Positions 1,088 to 22,065 are shown, counted from the first letter of the stretch. The stretch is DNA of 23,561 bases from a virus (IMGVR_UViG_3300046779_000230:1-23561); one strand, 5' to 3'. The notes: generated by a model not told the origin, from the letters alone. Numbers and translations are program-made.

Positions 1088-1434
1088 AGTAAGTGTTGAG
1101 CTAAAACCATGCAAGAGATCCAAGCCCAGATAACATTAAATCCAACTAAGGTTGGTAGCAGTTTCTTGTTACTTGCCCAGATAAGAGTTAGAGATGTAGC
1201 TAGAGTAAAGAAGTATAACCACCAAATTTGAATACCAAAGATAAGACCAGGAATTATAATCACAGCCTTTGCCGCCCAGCTGGCAAACTCAACCACGTTA
1301 TAATTAGTCCAGTACTCACGAGTAAACCACATGGCGAAACAATCACGGATTTTACCCCAGTTAGAGTGAGTGAATACTATGGAGCAAAGAACAACCCACA
1401 CTGAGGTTGCTGCTACAATTTGATCTAATGTCAT
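1084..1434 (-). CDS. Small integral membrane protein (3-4 TM)
   Basis: 116 aa with several hydrophobic, Trp-rich stretches; ATGA-coupled on both sides. Confidence 0.75.
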   Translation of the reverse strand: MTLDQIVAATSVWVVLCSIVFTHSNWGKIRDCFAMWFTREYWTNYNVVEFASWAAKAVIIIPGLIFGIQIWWLYFFTLATSLTLIWASNKKLLPTLVGFNVIWAWISCMVLAQHLL

Positions 1435-2306
1435 TTAGAAGCCTCAATTTTATCGCGATATTTTTCTTGTAAACGTCTAACGGTACCAATGGACTTTGTG
1501 TAGAATTGTTCTGGTGTAACAGCAGGAGTTTTCATACCAGAAACTTTAAAGATTTCATCGGCTCCAACCTTGGCTTGTGCATCATTAAGAATGATACTAA
1601 TTGCTTTACGACGAGTCTCATCCATAGACTTTGGAGCAACTGTGATGTTGAACACGTAAGGTGCATCAATACCAATTTCTTTTAACGTCTTGACATTTGG
1701 CGCAGTGGGAATACGTGTTGGACAAGAAGCAGCGAATGCTTGTAAGTTAGGATTCTTGGTCTTCATGGATTCATATGCTTCATGACGATCGATAACCATA
1801 AAAATACCATTGTTACCTGCCATATTCACCAGCGCATCATTGTTTGATTTAAATACAATGTACTTAACATCAAACTTGTACTTTTCTCCAAGAGCAAGAG
1901 CAGTCAAGTGTGCAGCGTTACCGAATCCAACACCACCAACGGTCAACTCTTTGTTGACATTGATTGGTCCATTAGTGATAACAGTCCAGCAAGCGTCGCC
2001 AAGAGCATGAACAGGAACATAATCTGACTCTTTGACCTTACCAGCAGCCACATTCTCTACGAATGCTGGAGCAATGATACCAAGACTGTTGGAATCCATA
2101 GACTTGAGAGCAATGATTTGATTGCCTCCAGGCTTGAACTCCAAAACAAAATTATAGATGTTTTGACTACGGTTTGCTGTCTCTATAATCTTGTACATTG
2201 CTGGTGTACCAGAATGTGTTGGGCTATATGGTGAGTAAATTTTAATAGTTTCTGTTGCATGGGCTGTACCAAAAGCAAACAGTAAAGCAATCAAGTAATT
2301 CTTCAA
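1431..2306 (-). CDS. tctC: Tripartite tricarboxylate transporter substrate-binding protein (Bug/TctC family), divergent
   Basis: Signal peptide (AHA-TE); IKIYSPYSP..., FKPGGNQ, GGVGFGNAAHL, YIVFKSNNDAL and LQAFAASCPTRIPTAPNVKTLKEIG align by eye with Bug/TctC blocks (VPFxxGG, NKPGAGG, GxGSxxHL, HVPYKG, LRALAVTxxxRxPxLPDVPTxxExG). Confidence 0.8.
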   Translation of the reverse strand: MKNYLIALLFAFGTAHATETIKIYSPYSPTHSGTPAMYKIIETANRSQNIYNFVLEFKPGGNQIIALKSMDSNSLGIIAPAFVENVAAGKVKESDYVPVHALGDACWTVITNGPINVNKELTVGGVGFGNAAHLTALALGEKYKFDVKYIVFKSNNDALVNMAGNNGIFMVIDRHEAYESMKTKNPNLQAFAASCPTRIPTAPNVKTLKEIGIDAPYVFNITVAPKSMDETRRKAISIILNDAQAKVGADEIFKVSGMKTPAVTPEQFYTKSIGTVRRLQEKYRDKIEASK

Positions 2307-6408: not shown

Positions 6409-7511
6409 CAAAACGCTCCAAGCAAGATGCACTCTTCATTGATGCGTCCATTGGGCACAGTCGGCTTGGTAGTCAATTTCTTCAATGCACCATTCAGAGC
6501 ACGTTTGCCCATAGAAAGACCCTTGAAGAATTCTTCTGGTTTACGTAAGGTCATAGACTTGGATTCTTTGATATCGAATCCAATGATTGTAGTACCCTTG
6601 ACAGCCAGAGCACCATCGGCTTTATACACTTGAACCTTACGGTACTTGGTATTATACACCCACAGTTCGCTGGAGCCAATAATTTCTTCTGGCTTGCACG
6701 ACTTTAGATTCAGTTCAGGGAACTCACGCATGTACTTGATGCGAGCAACTTGCTTGGTTGGCGATGTTGGCTTGCGTTTACGTGGAGCACGATTAGCCTT
6801 GGCAGTTTGTACTTGCTGATTGCAGTCACCGATGATAGTTTCCATAAACTCGGCAAACTTCTTCAACTCGCGTTTAGTGAAGTTGGAATAACCTTCAACA
6901 AGTTGCTTGTCGTCACCTTCAAGGGCTTCGCGCAACTCTTGTGCACGACCAACGAAAAAGTCACCAATACGTTTGGCAATGGGTGCAGAAACTTCTTTGG
7001 ACAACAGATAGTTCTTTGTCGAAAAGTCAGTAGATTTATTTGTGGTAAAGTCATCGATGGCACCTTCGATCTCACCAGCCAGTTCGTGTGCCTTTTCGTC
7101 CATTCGTTCTTGAATAGATGGTTGGGTTACAACTGGACTTTCTTTTTCTGTAGTCTTGACCTTGACAGGACGACCAGCCTTACGGACAATGTCTGCCACC
7201 ATAGTTTCGATACGCTGCATGTGTTGATCACTCAGAGTATTACCATTGGTAACAAGGCGACACAGAATACCAAGTTGGCGCACATCGTAATCACTTGCTT
7301 TGTCGATGGCAACAACTTCAGCTTTCTTGCCTAGTTTTGCAAAGTATTCGATAGCATACTTGCGATGGCGTTTTTCATCAACATTTAGCGAGTACCATTG
7401 CAGTGCTTGCGTAATGGAAACGACATATTTTTCTTGGTCGAGCATTGGCTCATCAACTGTTTTGTTAAGAGTCGCATGAGCCTTTGCACGCTTTTTTGCA
7501 TTAATAGCCAT
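6408..7511 (-). CDS. Conserved T4-like hypothetical protein (367 aa)
   Basis: Start MAINAKK at 7511 with GAGGA SD; basic C-terminal blocks LWVYNTKYRK, VKGTTIIGFD and TLRKPEE; has its own promoter. Confidence 0.75.
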   Translation of the reverse strand: MAINAKKRAKAHATLNKTVDEPMLDQEKYVVSITQALQWYSLNVDEKRHRKYAIEYFAKLGKKAEVVAIDKASDYDVRQLGILCRLVTNGNTLSDQHMQRIETMVADIVRKAGRPVKVKTTEKESPVVTQPSIQERMDEKAHELAGEIEGAIDDFTTNKSTDFSTKNYLLSKEVSAPIAKRIGDFFVGRAQELREALEGDDKQLVEGYSNFTKRELKKFAEFMETIIGDCNQQVQTAKANRAPRKRKPTSPTKQVARIKYMREFPELNLKSCKPEEIIGSSELWVYNTKYRKVQVYKADGALAVKGTTIIGFDIKESKSMTLRKPEEFFKGLSMGKRALNGALKKLTTKPTVPNGRINEECILLGAF

Positions 7512-8602: not shown

Positions 8603-9076
8603 TTATTGTTCCCAAGCCAACTTCATGTTTCTCCATGAATCAGCTTGAGGCTTTTCGTCTGCATCGTAAGTCCATCCAAGAGCCTTCATCATCTTGTGCT
8701 TGACTCGCAAGTTAGGTTGACGGAAACGCTCTGTGGCAGTAAATCCCATCATAGACCCAACTTCAACAACAGCACCACTACGACAGATACCTGCATGGCA
8801 GTGTACCAATACATTCATATGATTGTCAAGTGCACGTTGCAACAAACTTGTGATTGTGCTTGCTTGCTCATCGCTGATCTTGCATTCATCAGGAAATCCA
8901 TCCTCATCCTCAGCGTCAAGGAATTCAAACTGGTGAACTTCCTTAAATGCATGCTTTGTTGGACAAAACTCAGTGGCTGGATCTTGAATGCGAATGAGCA
9001 TGCAGTTCTCTCCAAGGTCACTGTGATGACCAAGATGAACATCGCTCATACTGACATTTTCAATCCAACGAATCAT
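8603..9076 (-). CDS. Protein-tyrosine/dual-specificity phosphatase-like protein
   Basis: VLVHCHAGICRSGAV = HCX5R P-loop. Confidence 0.85.
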   Translation of the reverse strand: MIRWIENVSMSDVHLGHHSDLGENCMLIRIQDPATEFCPTKHAFKEVHQFEFLDAEDEDGFPDECKISDEQASTITSLLQRALDNHMNVLVHCHAGICRSGAVVEVGSMMGFTATERFRQPNLRVKHKMMKALGWTYDADEKPQADSWRNMKLAWEQ

Positions 9077-9342
9077 AATATATTACTCCAAGTTCTTAAC
9101 TTTTCACGTTTCTTTTCAGAGGCTTCAATCACGTTCTCCCAACGGATCAATCCCTTTTCGCGCATCAAGTCAAACATGCAAACCAAGTCACCAATTTCTT
9201 CTTCAAGGTGCTCACGGTTAGTCTTTGGTTTTCCTGGTTTGTAGTTGTCGATACCGAAACGGTGAATCTTGCTAATTGCTACAACTACTTCTGCACATTC
9301 TTCTTGTGCGATATCCAAAATTTCTTCTTCAACCGAATTCAT
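9073..9342 (-). CDS. MazG-like NTP pyrophosphohydrolase
   Basis: QEECAEV...LEEEIGDL acidic motifs; start MNSVEEE at 9342 with GGAG SD. Confidence 0.8.
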   Translation of the reverse strand: MNSVEEEILDIAQEECAEVVVAISKIHRFGIDNYKPGKPKTNREHLEEEIGDLVCMFDLMREKGLIRWENVIEASEKKREKLRTWSNIL

Positions 9343-9487
9343 AAAACTCCATATCTCTTTCCCACTGCTCACATTCTAACAGGTAATGCATCTCATGCAT
9401 GAATTCATCGTAAAGGGCATCGATGTATTCTTGTTGAGACAGATCTGCAATCAGCTGCAATTCTTTGTTAATAGTATCAAGATTCAT
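9329..9487 (-). CDS. Small acidic hypothetical protein (52 aa), first gene after an early promoter
   Basis: Not in track; hand-translated MNLDTINKELQLIADLSQQEYIDALYDEFMHEMHYLLECEQWERDMEFYEFG*, with AAGGA SD. Confidence 0.7.
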   Translation of the reverse strand: MNLDTINKELQLIADLSQQEYIDALYDEFMHEMHYLLECEQWERDMEFYEFG

Positions 9488-9517
9488 AATATATCCTTAA
9501 TCAACCCTAACACCGTT

Positions 9518-9546
9518 ATTATGGCATAAAGTCAAATGCAAGACAA
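9518..9546 (-). promoter_or_regulatory. Sigma70-type promoter with extended -10
   Basis: TTGTCT (9546-9541), 17 nt, CATAAT (9523-9518) preceded by TGC. Confidence 0.7.
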
Positions 9547-9556
9547 ATTTAAATGA

Positions 9557-9583
9557 CAAAACCCCACACTAGGTGGGGTCTTT
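9557..9583 (-). terminator. Rho-independent terminator after the holin
   Basis: Minus strand GACCCCAC-CTAGT-GTGGGGTT followed by TTGTCATTT. Confidence 0.85.
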
Positions 9584-9599
9584 CCAGAAAACTAAAGTT

Positions 9600-10067
9600 T
9601 TAGTCGTTGCGTGTATTACGTACTGGTGGGTCACCAGCTTCTAGTTCAACTACTGGCGTTGCTGCAACTTTGGGCACTGGTCTTGCGACTGGTGTTGTGG
9701 TTGCAACTGGCGCAGGTACGCTAGGTGCTGTTGGCAAAATTGATGGTTGGGAGATTGCTGCTGCACCGCCATTGTTTGCTCCTGCAAGTTTTTCTTGTGT
9801 ACGACCCATTGCAGCGATACCAAGAACAGCACCCATTGCGATGTGGTATAAACCAGCACCTTGCAATGTTAGTGGTTGCCATTGTGTAACTGGCTGTTTT
9901 AATACAGCTTGCAACAAGCTCCATAGAATAGGGAATAGAACAAAGTCGGCAATACATGTACCCATGTAGATCCAACCCATGGCTGGACGCCACTTACTAT
10001 TCATCCAATCTTCTTTTTTCTTTTCACTCTCACTCATTACATTATTATTTTTATCTTGAGAGTCCAT
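9600..10067 (-). CDS. Holin-like protein (GTA_holin_3TM family)
   Basis: WMNSKWRPAMGW...WQPLTLQGAGLYHIAMGAVLGIAAMGRTQEK signature; Ala/Pro/Thr-rich tail. Confidence 0.75.
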   Translation of the reverse strand: MDSQDKNNNVMSESEKKKEDWMNSKWRPAMGWIYMGTCIADFVLFPILWSLLQAVLKQPVTQWQPLTLQGAGLYHIAMGAVLGIAAMGRTQEKLAGANNGGAAAISQPSILPTAPSVPAPVATTTPVARPVPKVAATPVVELEAGDPPVRNTRND

Positions 10068-10619
10068 TGTAATTCCTTAGACGATTAAAAATATACCTTG
10101 CGTCATTAGCAATAATGCCAAGACACCTACACCCCACGAACCCCAATACATACGCATATCAACTGCGATGATAGAAGCAGATAGCAACACGATAGCCAAT
10201 TGGAATAACATACCAGAGAATGTCAACCAAGGGCTGTGCTTCTTGGCGTCATCACGTTCAGCTTCATAAGCACGTGCCTTTGCAAGAAGTTCTTTCTTAC
10301 CTTCTTTCTTTACAGGGTCACTTTCGTATCGATCAATCTTTGCTTGTAGCTCAGCCTTACGCTTAGGATCTTTCGTTTCTTCTAGCTGACCCTCAGCAAT
10401 TGACTGCTTGATCGACTTTGCTTGAAAGAATGCATAGGTATCTGACGCTTTGATAAGATTAGTCATTGCAGCACCACTAAACGAGTTAGCGAAGTAAGTA
10501 TTAAGTGCTAGGAACAATGCCATAACAACGATAACTAAACCTGCTTTATCTTTAATTGCTGCTTCGCGTTCACTTCGAGTGGGCGCTTTCTTTACTTCTT
10601 CTGCCATTGTAATTCCTTA
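10064..10619 (-). repeat. Identical 16-nt direct repeats TAAGGAATTACAATGG flanking the DUF4337 gene
   Basis: Plus-strand ccattgtaattcctta at 10064-10079 and 10604-10619, 540 nt apart. Confidence 0.85.
10077..10607 (-). CDS. DUF4337-family membrane protein
   Basis: N-terminal TM, ASDTYAFFQAKSIKQ, coiled coil, LFQLAIVLLSASII and further C-terminal TMs. Confidence 0.75.
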   Translation of the reverse strand: MAEEVKKAPTRSEREAAIKDKAGLVIVVMALFLALNTYFANSFSGAAMTNLIKASDTYAFFQAKSIKQSIAEGQLEETKDPKRKAELQAKIDRYESDPVKKEGKKELLAKARAYEAERDDAKKHSPWLTFSGMLFQLAIVLLSASIIAVDMRMYWGSWGVGVLALLLMTQGIFLIV

Positions 10620-10631
10620 TATAAACAATGA

Positions 10632-11162
10632 TTATTTAGCCAATGGGTTGTCTAAAGCCTTTTGAATCTTACGATCAACATCGCGCTCTATATTTTTTAG
10701 AGTACCATCAACTTCTCTTCTGGTGTCACGAACTTCATTACGAACTTCTTTGACTGCTTGCTCGACTTCACGTTGTGATTGTTTGGATGAACGCTCTACA
10801 TTTTCAGCAACACCTTCAACGCGACGGATGTCATTCTTTAGATCATTCTTGATGTCTTGTGTGTATTGCATAGACTTTTCAGATTGAACTTGAACAACAT
10901 CAAGTTTCTTGTAGATCTCAGTCAAGTCTGGTGACACGTACTTGGCAATCTTTTCTTTCATGCTTTGATAGTCTTTGTAAACTTCAAATGCGCCATACAA
11001 ACCACCAAGTGTAGATGATACCAATGTGAATGCAACCATAAGTTTAGCAGGTGTGAACTCGTAGCCACCAATGCTGATGACTGTGTCCTTGCTGGCATAC
11101 TTTTTCATTGCTGCTTCTGCGTCATCAATCTTAGCGTTGACGTCTTTAATTTCTTCAGTCAT
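10632..11162 (-). CDS. Single-TM coiled-coil protein (176 aa)
   Basis: Start MTEEIK at 11162 with AGGAG SD; hydrophobic LMVAFTLVSSTLGGLYGAF followed by a heptad-rich C-terminus. Confidence 0.7.
   Translation of the reverse strand: MTEEIKDVNAKIDDAEAAMKKYASKDTVISIGGYEFTPAKLMVAFTLVSSTLGGLYGAFEVYKDYQSMKEKIAKYVSPDLTEIYKKLDVVQVQSEKSMQYTQDIKNDLKNDIRRVEGVAENVERSSKQSQREVEQAVKEVRNEVRDTRREVDGTLKNIERDVDRKIQKALDNPLAK
10633..10639 (-). promoter_or_regulatory. T4-type late promoter-like CTAAATA
   Basis: TAAATA core at a gene end, upstream of the DUF4337 RBS. Confidence 0.5.
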
Positions 11163-13509
11163 TTCTTTTCTCCTTGTATTGTGAATCGACCATTTCATTG
11201 TGTAGTCTATCTGTACCAGTCCACATTCTTAAGTTGGCACGATTGTCAATATTCTTTTGATTGTTATAGACACTCACTGGCTTATAGAATGTTGTGTCTG
11301 GAATAACAGTTTTATTGTAAGTATCAAAGCCTGGAGTAAACCCCATAGCTTGAATAACTACACTTTGTACTGCCTTTTGACTTTCCATATCAGCAGCTTT
11401 ACCCATATCATTTGCTAAGTTCTTACCTTTTTCAACAGCATCTTTTCTAGCTGCTTCGGCTCTACGTTCGGCTAGTGCTTGACGAGCAGTAGGTTGAGCT
11501 GGCTTATCACCGCTAGGTGCTTGAGCCATTTGCGGCTGTCCACCTGCAGGTTTATCACCAGCAGGTTCTGCTTTCTTGGGTTCAGGTGCTGGCGCAGCTG
11601 GCGCTGGTGGGGGTGCTACCAGTGGAACAGTAGCAGTCGCTGCTTGTGCAGGGCTAGCAGAAGTAGCAGTAGTAGTTAAAACTGTATTTACTTTCTCGTC
11701 TGCAACAACAGCAACTTTAACCTCACCAGATGAATCAGTAGTTGCCGTTGTTGCCACTGGAGCAGTTGCGGCAATAACACCAGCAGTAGCTACAGTAGAA
11801 GCAATACCTTGTTTTTCAAGAAGCATTTTCTTAGCATATGCTTCAGAATAGTTTGGGCAAGTTCTGTCGTATAACCCATTCAATGAACACTGTTGTTCAA
11901 GGTATGCGGAAGCATAGCCAGTACAAGTCGTTGAATATAGTGGATTGACTGAACACTGTTGTGAATGATACGCTGCTGCATATCCAGTACAAGTAGTTGC
12001 GTAAAGAGGATTGATTGAGCACTGTCTGTCATGGTACGCATTTGTATATCCTAAGCATGTAGTAGCATAAAGAGGATTAAGATTACATTGCTGATCGTGA
12101 TAAGCAGCACGGTAGCCACTGCAGGATTGACTATACAGCGGCGAAATTCCGCATTGTTGATCAAGATAAGCCTGTTCATAACCTGCGCAAGTTGTTGAGT
12201 ATAGTGGGTTAGCATTGCATTGATAATTTAGGTATGCTGCAGCGTATCCTGGGCAGCTTGGTGAATACAATTGATTAGCATTACACTGCTGAGTGAAGAA
12301 CGCTTGTTGATAACCAACGCAGCTAGTTGAATACAGTGGGTTAGCGGTACACTGCTGTTCAGTATATGCTTGCTGGTAACCAGAGCAGCTAGTTGATGAA
12401 AGTGGATTAACTGTACATGGATCTGGAGTGTACATAGCTTTACTCCACATATCACCAATATAGGCAACATCATTAGTTGTGGCAGTAAAGTTGAATCTAC
12501 CAAGAGTAGAAAGATTTCTACTTGTAGGAAACACGTACTGATAGTTTGTGGTGTTGTAGCTGTTTTGATAATTACGAGCAACAGAATACAATACGTTGTT
12601 ACTGCTATCAGTAATGCTTACGTTTGTAGAGACGCTTGGTGTTCTGTAATCCCAGCATCCAAGCCAACCCATGTCCCAAGAGTTACAATATGGTCCATTT
12701 GCGTTTGCTTGATAACCCCACTGGAAACCGTGGATCATAACACCAGCACCAGATAGCGCTAACGCTTGATTGATGGCATAGCTTTGATCAATTGTGTTGG
12801 AGTAGACCGAGTAACTATTTGGGTTTGGAACAAGGTTATTACTTAGATTTACAGTGTTGTAGTTAGCACAGCTTGGAGAGTAAGCAGGATTGGTTGCACA
12901 AGGGTCTACCGTGTAATTCAAACTCATGTTTACATTACGAATCTGTGGACCAAAGTAACCACCCCAGTATCCATTATCACCACCTTGAATACCAATTTGT
13001 AGATAGCTAACATCCGCCATGTTATATGGTGTTGTGGCAGTCTTTGTACCACTATAAGCAGTCCATTCAAATTTGGTATTGAAGTATTTGTTGTCTGATA
13101 GTAAGACGGAGTTAGCTGGACCACGTAGAGCAGTAGAAACAGTGAATGTGTCTATACCACCCTGACGATTATCACCGTTCATGTTACGAACTTCGTATGC
13201 GTAGTTGTAACCGTTGATCTTTATACCTGCACCAGCGTTAGATAAAGCATTGTTGATGGCTATAGTTTGCCCAACGTATGCGTTAGAATTGTAGCTGAAA
13301 CTAATACTGTTTGTGCTTGGATCGTAGATTGGAGATGGACCACCTGGACATGGTCCAGCGGTAGCACACCCTGCAGGAATTGCACCTGTTGTTACTCCCG
13401 TCCAAGTATGTGTAGTACCTGACGTGATTAAGTTAGGTGTAGTTTGAACAGTTTGAGAGTTTGCTAAACTGGTAAAACCTAACAAAATAATTGCTAGGTA
13501 TTTAAGCAT
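11155..13509 (-). CDS. Large exported Cys-repeat protein (784 aa)
   Basis: Signal peptide (SLANS); two related beta-rich domains; nine tandem 22-aa Cys2 repeats; Ala/Pro/Thr linker; helical C-terminus. Confidence 0.8.
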   Translation of the reverse strand: MLKYLAIILLGFTSLANSQTVQTTPNLITSGTTHTWTGVTTGAIPAGCATAGPCPGGPSPIYDPSTNSISFSYNSNAYVGQTIAINNALSNAGAGIKINGYNYAYEVRNMNGDNRQGGIDTFTVSTALRGPANSVLLSDNKYFNTKFEWTAYSGTKTATTPYNMADVSYLQIGIQGGDNGYWGGYFGPQIRNVNMSLNYTVDPCATNPAYSPSCANYNTVNLSNNLVPNPNSYSVYSNTIDQSYAINQALALSGAGVMIHGFQWGYQANANGPYCNSWDMGWLGCWDYRTPSVSTNVSITDSSNNVLYSVARNYQNSYNTTNYQYVFPTSRNLSTLGRFNFTATTNDVAYIGDMWSKAMYTPDPCTVNPLSSTSCSGYQQAYTEQQCTANPLYSTSCVGYQQAFFTQQCNANQLYSPSCPGYAAAYLNYQCNANPLYSTTCAGYEQAYLDQQCGISPLYSQSCSGYRAAYHDQQCNLNPLYATTCLGYTNAYHDRQCSINPLYATTCTGYAAAYHSQQCSVNPLYSTTCTGYASAYLEQQCSLNGLYDRTCPNYSEAYAKKMLLEKQGIASTVATAGVIAATAPVATTATTDSSGEVKVAVVADEKVNTVLTTTATSASPAQAATATVPLVAPPPAPAAPAPEPKKAEPAGDKPAGGQPQMAQAPSGDKPAQPTARQALAERRAEAARKDAVEKGKNLANDMGKAADMESQKAVQSVVIQAMGFTPGFDTYNKTVIPDTTFYKPVSVYNNQKNIDNRANLRMWTGTDRLHNEMVDSQYKEKRND
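11836..12432 (-). repeat. Nine tandem 66-nt (22-aa) coding repeats, consensus xxQQCxxNPLYSxxCxGYxxAY
   Basis: Read directly from the translation, YTPDPC through NYSEAY. Confidence 0.9.
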
Positions 13510-13985
13510 TAGTCTTTACTCTTGACTGCTTTTGGTTTGCGTTCTGGTTGCTCTTCCCAGATAGCTTTTGCGGACTCACCGATTTTTCCGTCCACTGGAC
13601 ATGGAGTGCCAGCGTTCATCATGGCAGTGAACACACGTTCATCTTGACACATGATAGAAACGGCTGCAACTTTCATACCCATGTCGTAGATACCACGGGC
13701 AAGTTTTAGACGTTCGCAGTTTTTGTCAGTCATAGTACCACCCATGGAGATACCAAGAATCTGAGTTTGCACTGCTGCTGATGCGCCGACTGCGCAAACG
13801 TCTGAGTTAATTACAGTGATTGCAGGAGCAACTGCAGTTGGAGGAGGTGATTTAACAGTCGTTGTGCTTGTGCTGTTAGAATCTGTGGTGCTTCTAGAAG
13901 TCGAGTCAGTTACGATGGGATCGATAGCCATCGCTGTTGATGTAGCCATAACAAAAAGCACCGCTGTAGCGATCTTTTTGTACAT
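13509..13985 (-). CDS. Exported Cys-containing protein (158 aa)
   Basis: Signal peptide (AMA-ID), Ser/Thr-rich linker, four Cys (VCAVG, NCERL, MCQDE, TPCP). Confidence 0.8.
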   Translation of the reverse strand: MYKKIATAVLFVMATSTAMAIDPIVTDSTSRSTTDSNSTSTTTVKSPPPTAVAPAITVINSDVCAVGASAAVQTQILGISMGGTMTDKNCERLKLARGIYDMGMKVAAVSIMCQDERVFTAMMNAGTPCPVDGKIGESAKAIWEEQPERKPKAVKSKD

Positions 13986-14023
13986 GATAATCCTTGTTGT
14001 TATAATTGTAGGGAACTACATTG

Positions 14024-15082
14024 TTATTTAGATTTCTGCAGATCTTCCACTTCTGATTCAATAGTCTTTGAATTGAATACTTCACGCACCTTTGATAAGA
14101 AAGATTGAGCCTTTGGAGTCCAATGCATCTTTGGTTCTGTTCTTTGATATAGTTTAGGATCCCAATCTTTGGTTTCATCAACCACAATATCTAAAGGCTC
14201 TTCAGAAATGTATTCTTGTGGCTGTGGTACAAAATCCTCGATAGATTTCTTTTCTTGTTCAGTTGGTGGTTCACCAACATCAGCAACCCATGCATCTGGC
14301 TTATACGTTTCTTCTTGTGGTGGCTGTACCACCACTTGTTCTCTACGCATTTGCCAGTTGGCAGCAATCAACAACAGAACTGCCAGTGGATCAAATACAG
14401 CAACAATCAACATGGTTACTGCACGTACTGCCTTTTCTAAAATATCATCACCTATCTGATCGCCGTAGATAACAGCAGCAATGTATTTTATTGGACCAAC
14501 CTCTGCTTCCACCTTACGTACTTCAGTGGCGATGGGTGCCCTTTCCTCATTAAGTTTGGCAACAGTTTTCTGTTCGGCTTCAATATCTTGAAGTAATCTA
14601 GTGCGTTCTTTGGTCTGCCCACGACGAATCGCAACCGCTTTTTCGGCACCCTTTTCGTCTTGACTTCTACCCATAACTTGGTCCACAGCCTCATCAAGCT
14701 GCTTGAGTGCTCGGCGATTCGCATCAATATTATCCTTTGCGGTTTTAATCTTATCATCAACAATGCTTAGCTTTGCCACAATATCACCAGATGGCACAGC
14801 TTGGTCCAAGTGAGCCTTAGACAAGAATCCAAAGATACCCATTGATGTCAAGAACATCAATATGATCAAGGATGCAGTAAAGTATGTCTTCATTAACACT
14901 GGAATTTCTTTCCAGTTGCGATACAACCATGAAGCAATAACAAGTTTAGCAGCGCCTAATAATACGCCCATAATGGCAATTGGTATAGGTGCTGCAGCAA
15001 AGATAGCCATTAAACCAACGATGGCATACCACTCAGCTACTGTTGATAATCCTAATGCAATTGCAAATAGTAGATATTTCAT
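14024..15082 (-). CDS. Multi-TM coiled-coil membrane protein (352 aa)
   Basis: Three N-terminal TMs, long coiled coil, C-proximal TM (FDPLAVLLLIAAN), acidic tail; ATGA-coupled to the GIY-YIG gene. Confidence 0.75.
   Translation of the reverse strand: MKYLLFAIALGLSTVAEWYAIVGLMAIFAAAPIPIAIMGVLLGAAKLVIASWLYRNWKEIPVLMKTYFTASLIILMFLTSMGIFGFLSKAHLDQAVPSGDIVAKLSIVDDKIKTAKDNIDANRRALKQLDEAVDQVMGRSQDEKGAEKAVAIRRGQTKERTRLLQDIEAEQKTVAKLNEERAPIATEVRKVEAEVGPIKYIAAVIYGDQIGDDILEKAVRAVTMLIVAVFDPLAVLLLIAANWQMRREQVVVQPPQEETYKPDAWVADVGEPPTEQEKKSIEDFVPQPQEYISEEPLDIVVDETKDWDPKLYQRTEPKMHWTPKAQSFLSKVREVFNSKTIESEVEDLQKSK
14025..14031 (-). promoter_or_regulatory. T4-type late promoter-like CTAAATA
   Basis: CTAAATA-ACA-ATGTAG plus a short hairpin, upstream of the AAGGA SD of the 158-aa gene. 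Confidence 0.55.
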
Positions 15083-15504
15083 ATCTTTCCTTTGATGTGT
15101 GACCCGTGAACACGGACAGATATCTGTCCATTATAGTAGTCATCGGATTCGAGCACTTTCCTTGTAAACTGCTCCCTAGCTTCTATGTAAGAACATTCTG
15201 CTTTTGATTTGCAGAAAAACAAAATCTCTCGAGTAAAGTTGCCCTTACCGAGAGATTCTACATCTTTGTTTAGCTCAATAGATGAGCCATAATAATCTAA
15301 CCAATCAGAGTCAATCTTTGATTTAATCTTTTTCTTTTTCTTGGTACCATTCTTTAGAACGACTGTTTTAGTAGTAGTTCTTGAGAACTTTGCAAGTTTT
15401 TTACCAATGTACTTCCTACCGTTGGTATTATTTGTAATAAGATATACAAAACCAATACAATCGGAAGGAAGTTCATTTATCTGTTCGTTTTCGTAAAGCC
15501 ACAT
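15079..15504 (-). CDS. Single-domain GIY-YIG endonuclease (Seg-like)
   Basis: GFVYLITNNTNGRKYIGKK, YYGSS, catalytic-type E in YIEAREQF, YYNGQI. Confidence 0.85.
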   Translation of the reverse strand: MWLYENEQINELPSDCIGFVYLITNNTNGRKYIGKKLAKFSRTTTKTVVLKNGTKKKKKIKSKIDSDWLDYYGSSIELNKDVESLGKGNFTREILFFCKSKAECSYIEAREQFTRKVLESDDYYNGQISVRVHGSHIKGKI

Positions 15505-20999: not shown

Positions 21000-21356
21000 T
21001 TATTTGCCAATTACCTTAGAGAATAGTTCTAGGTGGCTAATTAAATAACCAATAACAATTGCACCACCAACAATCATCCAACGCCATCTTTCAAGAACAT
21101 CAACACGTTCTGTGATTTTTTTGATGTCTTGTTTTATCTCGGTTTGAATTTGTTCATGTTGCGTCTTTGACGCTTCTGAATTTGCACCCATCTTATATTC
21201 AAGACGAACTTCCATCTGGTCAATCTTGTCTAAGATTTCACGATTACCAGTTGTGATTCTAGAGTGCACCTCTTTGACGTCGGCTTTAAGGTCTTTGACG
21301 TCGTCTTTGATACCTTCGACTTGTGCTTCCAATTTTGCGATTCTTTCTGTGTCCAT
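21000..21356 (-). CDS. Coiled-coil protein with C-terminal TM (XhlA-like; lysis-associated candidate)
   Basis: Heptad N-terminus, LERWRWMIVGGAIVIGYLI TM; TGATG-coupled to the o-spanin. Confidence 0.6.
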   Translation of the reverse strand: MDTERIAKLEAQVEGIKDDVKDLKADVKEVHSRITTGNREILDKIDQMEVRLEYKMGANSEASKTQHEQIQTEIKQDIKKITERVDVLERWRWMIVGGAIVIGYLISHLELFSKVIGK

Positions 21357-21640
21357 CAATTTATATTCTCGTAAATGTGTTTCTGAACATTATACCATTC
21401 AATCCATGCGTCAGACTTTATAGCACATTCATAATATGTGGTATAGTTCAAAGTAACAGTTCGCGCCACATCACTTAACTTGGCGTCTTCTTGTAACTTT
21501 TGAAGGTTGGGGCATTTTTCTAGAGACATCTTTCCAGGTGGCTCAGGAAACTTAGATTTTACTGGCACAACAGTCGTACATCCAGCAAGGATGAAAGACA
21601 GAAGTAATAGTGTTGCAACAAGTAGAGACGTAATTCTCAT
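21356..21640 (-). CDS. Outer-membrane spanin (Rz1-like lipoprotein)
   Basis: Lipobox LAGC, Pro-rich segment FPEPPG, two further Cys. Confidence 0.75.
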   Translation of the reverse strand: MRITSLLVATLLLLSFILAGCTTVVPVKSKFPEPPGKMSLEKCPNLQKLQEDAKLSDVARTVTLNYTTYYECAIKSDAWIEWYNVQKHIYENIN

Positions 21641-22065
21641 TTCAATGCCTCTGCTGCGTCATTATGAACTTTAACAAATTCTTTTGGAATTTTACACTGG
21701 TCATCATATTTAATCAATTCTTTGTCAACATACTTAATAATGTCGTCACCGCGAACTCTAACAACTTCTAGTTGTTTAACGACTTTTTCAACAATCTTAG
21801 TATTCTCTTTAGCAGACTCGGCTTCAGCCTTGGCTACTTTAGCTTCCATTTCTTTGACTCTTAGTTCCCACTTTTCTTGATTGGCAATACCACCTTCAAT
21901 GTACAAACCAGCAACCAACAAAACAGCAGATATAACCTGCAGCGGTAGCTTGTATGCTGATATCATTGGAACAAATGTCAACACCTTAGATGCTAACAGT
22001 CCACCGATTCCAGCAATCAGTACTAGGTGAAATACCCAAGTAGGTAAGAAATCAAGAATCCACAT
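21637..22065 (-). CDS. Inner-membrane spanin (Rz-like)
   Basis: N-terminal TMs, periplasmic coiled coil, C-terminal CKIPKEF..HNDAA; ATGA overlap with the lipoprotein gene. Confidence 0.7.
   Translation of the reverse strand: MWILDFLPTWVFHLVLIAGIGGLLASKVLTFVPMISAYKLPLQVISAVLLVAGLYIEGGIANQEKWELRVKEMEAKVAKAEAESAKENTKIVEKVVKQLEVVRVRGDDIIKYVDKELIKYDDQCKIPKEFVKVHNDAAEALK

Follow-up and report, generated by a model that had tools for sequence, protein, structure and literature searches.

Three coupled genes at positions 10,632 to 13,985 of a viral DNA stretch, IMGVR_UViG_3300046779_000230:1-23561, encode a conserved set of proteins that we tentatively read as an accessory to lysis, made late, located in the periplasm and anchored in the inner membrane. 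The stretch, called the window below, comprises 23,561 nucleotides (nt) and forms the beginning of a viral record of 126 kb (79% complete according to CheckV). Gene 1 encodes a small four-cysteine protein with a signal peptide, gene 2 a long, cysteine-paired rod carrying two jelly-roll heads, and gene 3 a predicted membrane-anchored coiled coil. An earlier reading of the same DNA, hereafter the original prediction, had described these genes as an exported, disulfide-rich envelope module preceded by a late-promoter motif and followed by DUF4337 and holin genes.

Organization and coupling of the three genes

The elements of the module, all located on the minus strand, are the following, with the structural limits of gene 2 taken from its AlphaFold2 (AF2) model and the predicted local distance difference test (pLDDT) values of that model.

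14025..14031, minus strand: CTAAATA, a late-promoter-like motif of the marine T4 type, 40 nt 5' of the gene 1 ATG; promoter role putative
13509..13985, minus strand: gene 1, predicted exported protein of 158 amino acids (aa) with signal peptide at residues 1-20 (sequence reading and relatives)
13456..13509, minus strand: gene 2 signal peptide, residues 1-18, predicted cleavage after A-N-S, ahead of QT
12907..13455, minus strand: gene 2 residues 19-201, first of the two jelly-roll heads (beta sandwich), with a C-x9-C loop after it (AF2, pLDDT mostly 85-93)
12427..12807, minus strand: gene 2 residues 235-361, second jelly-roll head, arisen as a copy of the first within the protein (AF2 and Foldseek)
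11812..12426, minus strand: gene 2 stalk, residues 362-566, nine 22-residue units C-x9-C-x-G-Y-x2-A-Y-x3-Q-Q (AF2 model and cysteine count)
11485..11811, minus strand: gene 2 spacer, residues 567-675, disordered and rich in Thr, Ala and Pro (pLDDT <50)
11155..11484, minus strand: gene 2 helical C-terminal domain and stop, residues 676-784, with invariant G-F-T-P-G-F-D-x-Y and the ending ..E-M-V-D-S-Q-Y
10632..11162, minus strand: gene 3, 176-aa bitopic membrane protein (sequence and relatives)

The three genes are tightly coupled. The TAA stop of gene 1 shares its final A with the ATG of gene 2, giving a TAATG junction, and the ATG of gene 3 (11162) lies inside the 3' end of gene 2, AATGACTGA, which creates an 8-nt overlap; an AAGGAG sequence stands 8 nt upstream of this ATG. 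Both overlaps had been pointed out before and can be read directly in the sequence. The start of gene 3 is set by comparison: 63 relatives begin with M-[AT]-E-E-I-K-D, and the protein is therefore assigned 176 aa rather than the 188 aa of the longest open reading frame (ORF).

The late-promoter motif is the weakest part of the original observation. CTAAATA-like motifs are described in the cyanophage literature as late promoters of marine T4-like phages, and 34 of 57 related loci have a TAAATA at most 70 nt ahead of gene 1, which speaks for the motif. On the other side, the whole window lacks the T4 late consensus TATAAATA, and the CTAAATA 7-mer is not enriched there (four copies against 4.1 expected). 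A second copy, at 10633-10639, precedes the DUF4337 gene. Scans of positions 9300-15300 for sigma-70 promoters and terminators returned matches at chance level only.

Export signals and structures of the encoded proteins

A basic n-region, a hydrophobic core of at least 10 residues and small residues at positions -3 and -1, the features by which we defined a signal peptide, are present in all 36 members of the gene 2 family and all 24 members of the gene 1 family. The most hydrophobic run of 10 residues in these segments has a mean Kyte-Doolittle value of at least 2.24. In gene 2, sequence identity among relatives falls to 0.41 in the signal peptide, compared with 0.58-0.64 in the mature domains. 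Signal peptides that are kept in kind while diverging faster than the mature protein are the expected signature of a working export signal, and on this ground both predicted signal peptides appear to be real. As judged from sequence, the products of genes 1 and 2 would be exported by the Sec pathway and cleaved by signal peptidase I (SPase-I). No cysteine near the cleavage site and no lipobox was found in either protein, in the window or in the 24 and 36 relatives.

The N-terminus of gene 1 consists of K/R residues, a hydrophobic core and A-M-A ahead of IDP. The mature part opens with a conserved DPIVTDSTS, continues with a Ser/Thr-rich stretch and SPPPTAVAP, and ends in a domain of about 95 residues. 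The description of gene 1 as a 158-aa signal-peptide protein with four cysteines agrees with its sequence and its relatives: exactly four are present (positions 64, 90, 113 and 129), they are invariant across the 24 relatives, and they probably form two disulfides. Gene 1 matches PHROG 20531, a family of unknown function (E 2e-17), and the family of its four-cysteine domain amounts to 1552 clusters at 50% identity. Since the AF2 model built from 24 sequences reached a pLDDT of only 52 and was uninformative, gene 1 was not used for a fold search. A profile of gene 1 had no match among Protein Data Bank sequences, and a Pfam scan of 28 longer four-cysteine relatives revealed no informative fused domain, the additional length being low-complexity sequence.

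Gene 2 (13509..11155, minus strand) encodes the 784-aa signal-peptide protein with many paired cysteines that had been singled out earlier; counting gives 24 cysteines arranged in 12 pairs at i/i+10 (one at i/i+6), nine of which fall in the 22-residue repeats, and all are invariant or nearly so across 36 relatives. The AF2 model, based on 36 sequences, has a mean pLDDT of 70.5. Both heads carry an AIN-AL--GAG motif and a hydrophobic strand, and the second head, like the first, is followed by a C-x9-C loop. Each unit of the stalk is modelled as a disulfide-sized loop followed by a 12-residue helix, and the number of units ranges from 5 to 14 among relatives. The spacer is the least conserved region of the protein, with an identity of 0.32. 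Foldseek places the modelled heads with the tandem carbohydrate-binding module (CBM) 22, Cry domain III, Bacteroides SGBP-B and the sugar-binding domain of Fbs2, with an E-value of 3e-7; the template modeling (TM) scores are low, as the alignments cover just a part of the model. Pfam gives no CBM match, nor any other, for gene 2 of the window.

In gene 3, a 38-residue N-terminal part precedes one predicted hydrophobic segment at about residues 39-62, a coiled coil and an invariant D-N-P-L-A end, which agrees with the membrane-anchored coiled coil proposed for the third gene. A conserved G-G-Y-x-F-T-P-A-K-L-M lies ahead of the membrane segment. The coiled coil varies in length by insertion or deletion of whole repeats, and across 51 loci its length does not track that of the gene 2 spacer (rho -0.16).

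Distribution and conservation of the trio

Scoring of 8,000 candidates gave over 2,200 relatives of gene 2 at an E-value of 0.001, all of them unnamed and on contigs of up to 340 kb. Gene 2 is encoded on 338 viral contigs of IMG/VR. Of the loci on these contigs, 79 were examined; nearly all have genes 1, 2 and 3 in this order, as does every locus that includes the flanks, and the gene neighbourhoods around the trio differ between loci. A tblastn search with gene 2 found nothing in 50,697 phage records, and cultured carriers were reached only through matches to genes 1 and 3. The same three-gene plan is present in eight cultured phages, six infecting Pelagibacter (SAR11; Mosig, HTVC023P, HTVC033P, HTVC115P, HTVC202P and Baldr) and two infecting Roseobacter (CRP-207 and CRP-810). 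Thus, the co-occurrence of the three genes extends beyond the window.

In these remote versions, the first gene encodes a signal-peptide protein with the four-cysteine domain. The second encodes a signal-peptide protein whose head is a different one, in many cases CenC-like, whose cysteine rod is replaced by an acidic spacer and whose C-terminal domain is related; for instance, HTVC115P gp53 combines the gene 2 C-terminal signature with a different head. The third encodes a small, N-terminally anchored coiled coil ending in N-P-L. In the pelagiphage homologues of gene 3 (HTVC115P, Mosig, HTVC033P and HTVC023P), which share this ending, the membrane segment lies at about residues 10-35, at the extreme N-terminus. 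Ralstonia phage RSP15 encodes the four-cysteine protein alone, and HTVC027P, for which a transcriptome is published, is not among the trio carriers found.

Two genes annotated as lysozyme in GenBank, CRP-207 gp73 (L104:3292-3873) and CRP-810 gp51 (L088:5165-5587), have no Pfam lysozyme domain and display the signature of gene 3, namely G-G-Y/F, one membrane segment, a coiled coil and a C-terminal N-P-L. These labels are likely misannotations, and the 'lysozyme' beside the module in the two phages was rejected as a link to lysis, being the gene 3 homologue itself.

A scan for the four-cysteine domain in 185,579 prokaryote species, each represented by one genome, produced 27 matches (contigs L107-L133), all on contigs of metagenome-assembled genomes (MAGs) and none in isolate genomes. 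The taxa assigned to these contigs (such as Bifidobacterium, Melainabacteria, Methanobacteriota and Rhodobacteraceae) are mutually incompatible, and the contigs are most likely misbinned phage contigs. From this restriction to incompatible MAG contigs, the module appears to belong to lytic phages.

None of the trio proteins fits a Pfam, NCBIfam, PADLOC or annotated PHROG family, Atlas searches returned unnamed viral clusters only, and no paper describing the module was found in the literature. The original prediction is borne out in that the set matches no named system and, having no structural PHROG or Pfam match, fits no known virion family. Taken together, the conserved export signals, the invariant cysteine pairs, the co-occurrence of the three genes and the lack of any family make a periplasmic module of no named kind a fair reading.

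A separate lysis set and the position of the trio relative to lysis genes

A lipobox scan of the whole 126-kb record yielded one credible lipoprotein, a 94-aa protein with the lipobox L-A-G-C (21640..21356, minus strand). It resembles Pfam LysC (Rz1-like) at an E-value of 1.2e-3, below the cut-off, and its gene overlaps that of a 142-aa protein with N-terminal membrane segments and a coiled coil (22065..21637, minus strand). The features related to lysis in the window are as follows.

21356..22065, minus strand: canonical spanin-like pair, 142-aa anchor (22065..21637) and 94-aa lipoprotein (21640..21356) with a 4-nt overlap (lipobox scan, weak LysC match)
10077..10607, minus strand: DUF4337 membrane protein, context outside the module (Pfam E 6e-32)
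9600..10067, minus strand: holin GTA_holin_3TM, context (Pfam E 5e-8; PHROG 3427, holin)

A glycoside hydrolase family 19 (GH19) endolysin is encoded at 120196-120810 of the same record. Homologues of the lipoprotein occur in four of the five complete relatives that carry the trio. Two complete relatives show the order anchor, lipoprotein, GH19-type endolysin, holin, and a third the order endolysin, anchor, lipoprotein, DUF4337, holin. From this order, the DUF4337 and holin genes that follow the trio in the window are a displaced part of the lysis set. The two genes had been reported next to the module, and their identity is confirmed by Pfam; they stand outside it and in relatives belong to the separate lysis cassette.

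DUF4337, a family with no known function, is found directly before the holin in the window; in a complete relative of 374 kb (L090, 940-1494) it separates the holin from the outer-membrane spanin (o-spanin). The protein is probably a membrane component of lysis cassettes and may be an antiholin or a partner of the holin. The spanin-like pair is followed by a tail-anchored coiled coil that belongs to DUF7201 (region 21000-22065, minus strand).

Lysis genes verified with Pfam lie at most four genes from the trio in four independent phage lineages. In the window the holin is two genes downstream, and in Mosig a holin (E 1.6e-5) is directly upstream; HTVC033P has an Amidase_2 endolysin four genes upstream, and in HTVC023P a Peptidase_M15_3 endolysin directly follows the gene 3 homologue. 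On a metagenomic contig, Peptidase_M15_3 is five genes away. Roughly one in four T4-like loci has DUF4337 or a holin as a neighbour of the trio. As the nearby wall hydrolases come from unrelated families, the module is not tied to one enzyme.

Lipobox scans revealed no credible lipoprotein o-spanin in the podophages HTVC023P, HTVC033P and HTVC115P, all of which carry the trio, and searches with the LysC family and with the anchor protein of the window, by profile and by sequence, found nothing in five cultured carriers. Spanins diverge fast, for which reason the evidence for missing spanins in cultured carriers is weak.

Further small ORFs were noted in these phages. The Mosig record holds a 67-aa ORF with the lipobox L-A-S-G-C (L147, 90539-90742, minus strand), the sole credible lipoprotein there and far from the trio, which by its sequence is a candidate o-spanin. 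Very basic proteins of 45-51 residues, HTVC023P gp47 and gp50 (L102:5838-5993 and 6828-6968) and HTVC115P gp50 (L086:9410-9547), flank the gene 3 homologue and the endolysin in pelagiphages in which a lipoprotein o-spanin is missing, and may be cationic peptides that disrupt membranes.

Proposed function and alternatives

Our preferred reading, held tentatively, is that the trio assists lysis from the periplasm. Gene 3 would be an inner-membrane protein with its N-terminus inside the cell and its coiled coil extending into the periplasm towards the DNPLA tip. The gene 2 tail would dock on gene 3, on gene 1 or on both, gene 1 being a third member of the assembly, and the rod and spacer would carry the lectin-like heads to a glycan of the wall or the outer-membrane layer, to which they may bind. 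The resulting tether between the inner membrane and the wall or outer-membrane glycan would help or time the breakdown of the envelope at the end of infection. When the periplasmic part of gene 3, the cysteine domain of gene 1 and the gene 2 tail were submitted to complex prediction, the scores stayed under the mark, with the fold of the partners uncertain. In a bolder version, which we consider doubtful, the trio would represent a lipoprotein-free class of periplasm-spanning lysis device, in which a coiled coil is joined through the tail to a rod with exchangeable, glycan-gripping heads; in podophages of SAR11 and Roseobacter that have no lipoprotein o-spanin, it would time the final step of lysis or perform it itself, and in T4-like phages it would act beside an ordinary spanin.

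Several observations weigh against a role in lysis. With its spanin pair, GH19 endolysin and holin, the phage is fully equipped to lyse a diderm host in the conventional way; the trio is therefore not its spanin, nor does it belong to the core lysis machinery. In three complete relatives, the lysis cassettes are located about 8, 10 and 100 kb from the trio, so that the linkage to lysis is loose. The trio adjoins the terminase gene in HTVC202P and Baldr, no lysis gene was recognised near it in HTVC115P, CRP-207 and CRP-810, and the neighbourhood counts are not independent since related loci share ancestry. Finally, the number of stalk units does not covary with the length of the gene 3 coiled coil across 51 loci (rho 0.04).

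The main rival explanation, which we regard as rather unlikely, is superinfection exclusion, receptor masking or progeny protection: the lectin-headed protein, anchored or released at lysis, would bind a host envelope glycan and block the entry of competing phages or stop new virions from sticking to debris. T4 Sp and Imm and T5 Llp achieve exclusion or receptor blocking by other means. Such a role would be in line with the resemblance of the heads to carbohydrate-binding folds, with the independence of the module from the complete lysis set and with its occurrence only on phage contigs, never in isolate genomes. Distant phages also swap in unrelated or CenC-like heads while keeping the tail, gene 1 and gene 3, as expected of a part that tracks variable host surfaces; within the T4-like group, however, the heads are no more variable than the tail (identity 0.52-0.58 versus 0.52). 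Exclusion is expressed early by known phages, and both the late-type motif and the position among late and lysis genes fit it poorly. Moreover, Sec export alone would leave the heads in the periplasm, away from surface receptors, and PADLOC gave no match beyond coiled-coil noise.

A role in remodelling the host surface or periplasm, with no part in lysis or exclusion, seems improbable. The trio would then promote aggregation, capture glycans or nutrients, or stabilise the envelope until assembly is complete, and its lectin-like heads and the long Pro/Ala spacer and rod, which could span the periplasm, would suit such a task. Aquatic T4-like phages do carry other exported host-like functions, including a TctC-type solute-binding protein gene in the window, and pelagimyophages carry CsgG and CsgF genes of unclear role (PMC7029224). 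Cell aggregation ('sibling capture') has been proposed for the curli genes of pelagimyophages. No gene for CsgG or another outer-membrane channel was found in the phage of the window or in four complete relatives, which leaves the trio no evident route to the surface; remodelling also leaves the recurrent position beside holin or endolysin genes unexplained, and the host homologue expected of a captured metabolic gene is missing. Very improbable is that the proteins are virion parts, such as fibres or decoration, whose N-terminal hydrophobic segments are not export signals or which join the particles only after lysis. Apparent late-type transcription and the location of the trio inside or just after the structural genes of the podophages HTVC115P and HTVC023P agree with this idea, as do Foldseek matches among viral models to similar jelly-roll domains of tail-fibre and receptor-binding proteins, at E-values of 1e-8 to 1e-9 and with low TM-scores. 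It conflicts with the textbook SPase-I signals on both proteins, kept in kind in all relatives, and with the twelve invariant cysteine pairs and two more, which are improbable for folding in the reducing cytoplasm. Gene 3 is, in addition, a predicted integral membrane protein, no structural PHROG or Pfam match was obtained, and in T4-like phages the trio lies outside the structural module.

The module is widespread, being carried by hundreds of uncultured phages and by cultured phages of SAR11 and Roseobacter. Little has been described of the way in which these phages breach the envelope of their hosts, and a recognisable spanin is missing from several carriers. A conserved exported set with an exchangeable, sugar-binding-like head is a candidate for an undescribed envelope step, be it lysis, the timing of lysis or exclusion, and cultured phage-host pairs are available for work on it. 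The analysis adds a canonical lysis cassette apart from the trio, to which DUF4337 and the holin are now assigned, as well as scans for lipoproteins; in terms of annotation, the CRP-207 and CRP-810 'lysozymes' become anchor homologues, and DUF4337 a likely member of lysis cassettes.

Genomic setting of the window

Every gene of the window is on the minus strand, and the gene content is that of a T4-like myophage, with RNase H, a SegE-type homing endonuclease, NrdA/NrdB, ThyX, dCMP deaminase, MazG and 2-oxoglutarate-Fe(II) oxygenases. In T4-like phages the trio is surrounded by nucleotide-metabolism and lysis genes. One frequent upstream neighbour, which is not part of the core, is listed here.

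14024..15082, minus strand: 352-aa DUF4407-like protein with four membrane segments and a coiled-coil loop (Atlas cluster name, score 0.96)

This gene lies directly upstream of the trio in about half of the 79 loci. The SegE-type GIY-YIG homing endonuclease gene (15079-15504, minus strand; Pfam E 3e-33) is situated between nrdB and the gene for this multi-pass membrane protein, and is found at the same site in a syntenic 234-kb contig (L001). The TctC match, a family of periplasmic tricarboxylate-binding receptors, is at 1431-2306 (minus strand; Pfam E 2.7e-7) and may be an exported auxiliary metabolic gene. A 157-aa protein at 8603-9076 (minus strand) contains a protein phosphatase motif of the dual-specificity or polymorphic-toxin type, with Pfam E-values of 3e-6 to 6e-4, below or near the cut-offs. 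In HTVC115P, a homologue of HlyC-type RTX-toxin acyltransferases (gp46, L086:12249-12698; Pfam E 1e-15) is encoded a few genes after the trio and adjoins a 685-aa protein of no family.

Comparison with known systems

The published survey of pelagimyophages treats the curli genes and not the trio (PMC7029224). Among the systems to which the trio can be compared, the RI/T lysis inhibition of T4 also involves a small exported protein, encoded near lysis genes in a T4-like phage, that could time lysis from the periplasm. The holin here is of the GTA 3TM type and not T, RI uses a signal-anchor-release segment rather than a cleaved signal, and the trio comprises three proteins, including a large one with putative glycan binding; searches of Pfam, PHROG and NCBIfam showed no similarity of the trio to RI. 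T4 Sp/Imm and T5 Llp resemble it as phage-made proteins of the infected-cell envelope that act on other phages or protect progeny. They differ as single small early proteins without lectin heads, stalk or coiled-coil anchor, and they show no similarity to the trio.

TolA and TonB likewise have an anchor in the inner membrane and a long spacer, helical or Pro-rich, that is able to cross the periplasm, and one GenBank record labels the spacer region of a relative 'tonB'. However, the trio has neither a TonB or TolA C-terminal domain nor an ExbBD/TolQR partner, and its spacer and anchor are on separate proteins. With carbohydrate-binding jelly rolls (the tandem CBM22 of Xyn10C, CBM4_9/CenC and Fbs2), the modelled heads share the beta-sandwich fold and the arrangement as a tandem pair (Foldseek E 3e-7); the heads of pelagiphages start with N-L-I-T-N-G-N-F-E, as in the CenC type, and one is annotated as carbohydrate-binding. 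Gene 2 of the window has no Pfam match, and the TM-scores are low. PADLOC gave only weak coiled-coil matches to ZorA tails, at E-values of 1.6e-4 and worse.

Two-component spanins (lambda Rz/Rz1, P2 LysB/LysC and T4 PseT.3/PseT.2) are the nearest known kind. Gene 3 resembles an inner-membrane spanin (i-spanin) in its predicted topology, an N-terminal membrane segment followed by a periplasmic coiled coil of about 100-150 residues. Coupled genes, often beside holin or endolysin genes, are common to both systems, and like spanins the trio would be expressed late and act in the periplasm, with disulfides in the partner proteins. In contrast to spanins, the trio includes no lipoprotein, its partners having SPase-I sites and no lipobox cysteine, and one of them is a 784-aa rod with lectin-like heads. 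The gene order also differs: the trio reads partner, partner, anchor in all loci, whereas an o-spanin gene is embedded in, overlaps or follows the i-spanin gene, and no lipobox ORF overlaps gene 3. Nor is the trio the sole candidate for outer-membrane disruption, given the separate pair at 22065..21356. Because of the absent lipoprotein, the different gene order and the presence of a separate canonical pair, the trio is not classed here among the spanins, although its mode of action may be related to theirs.

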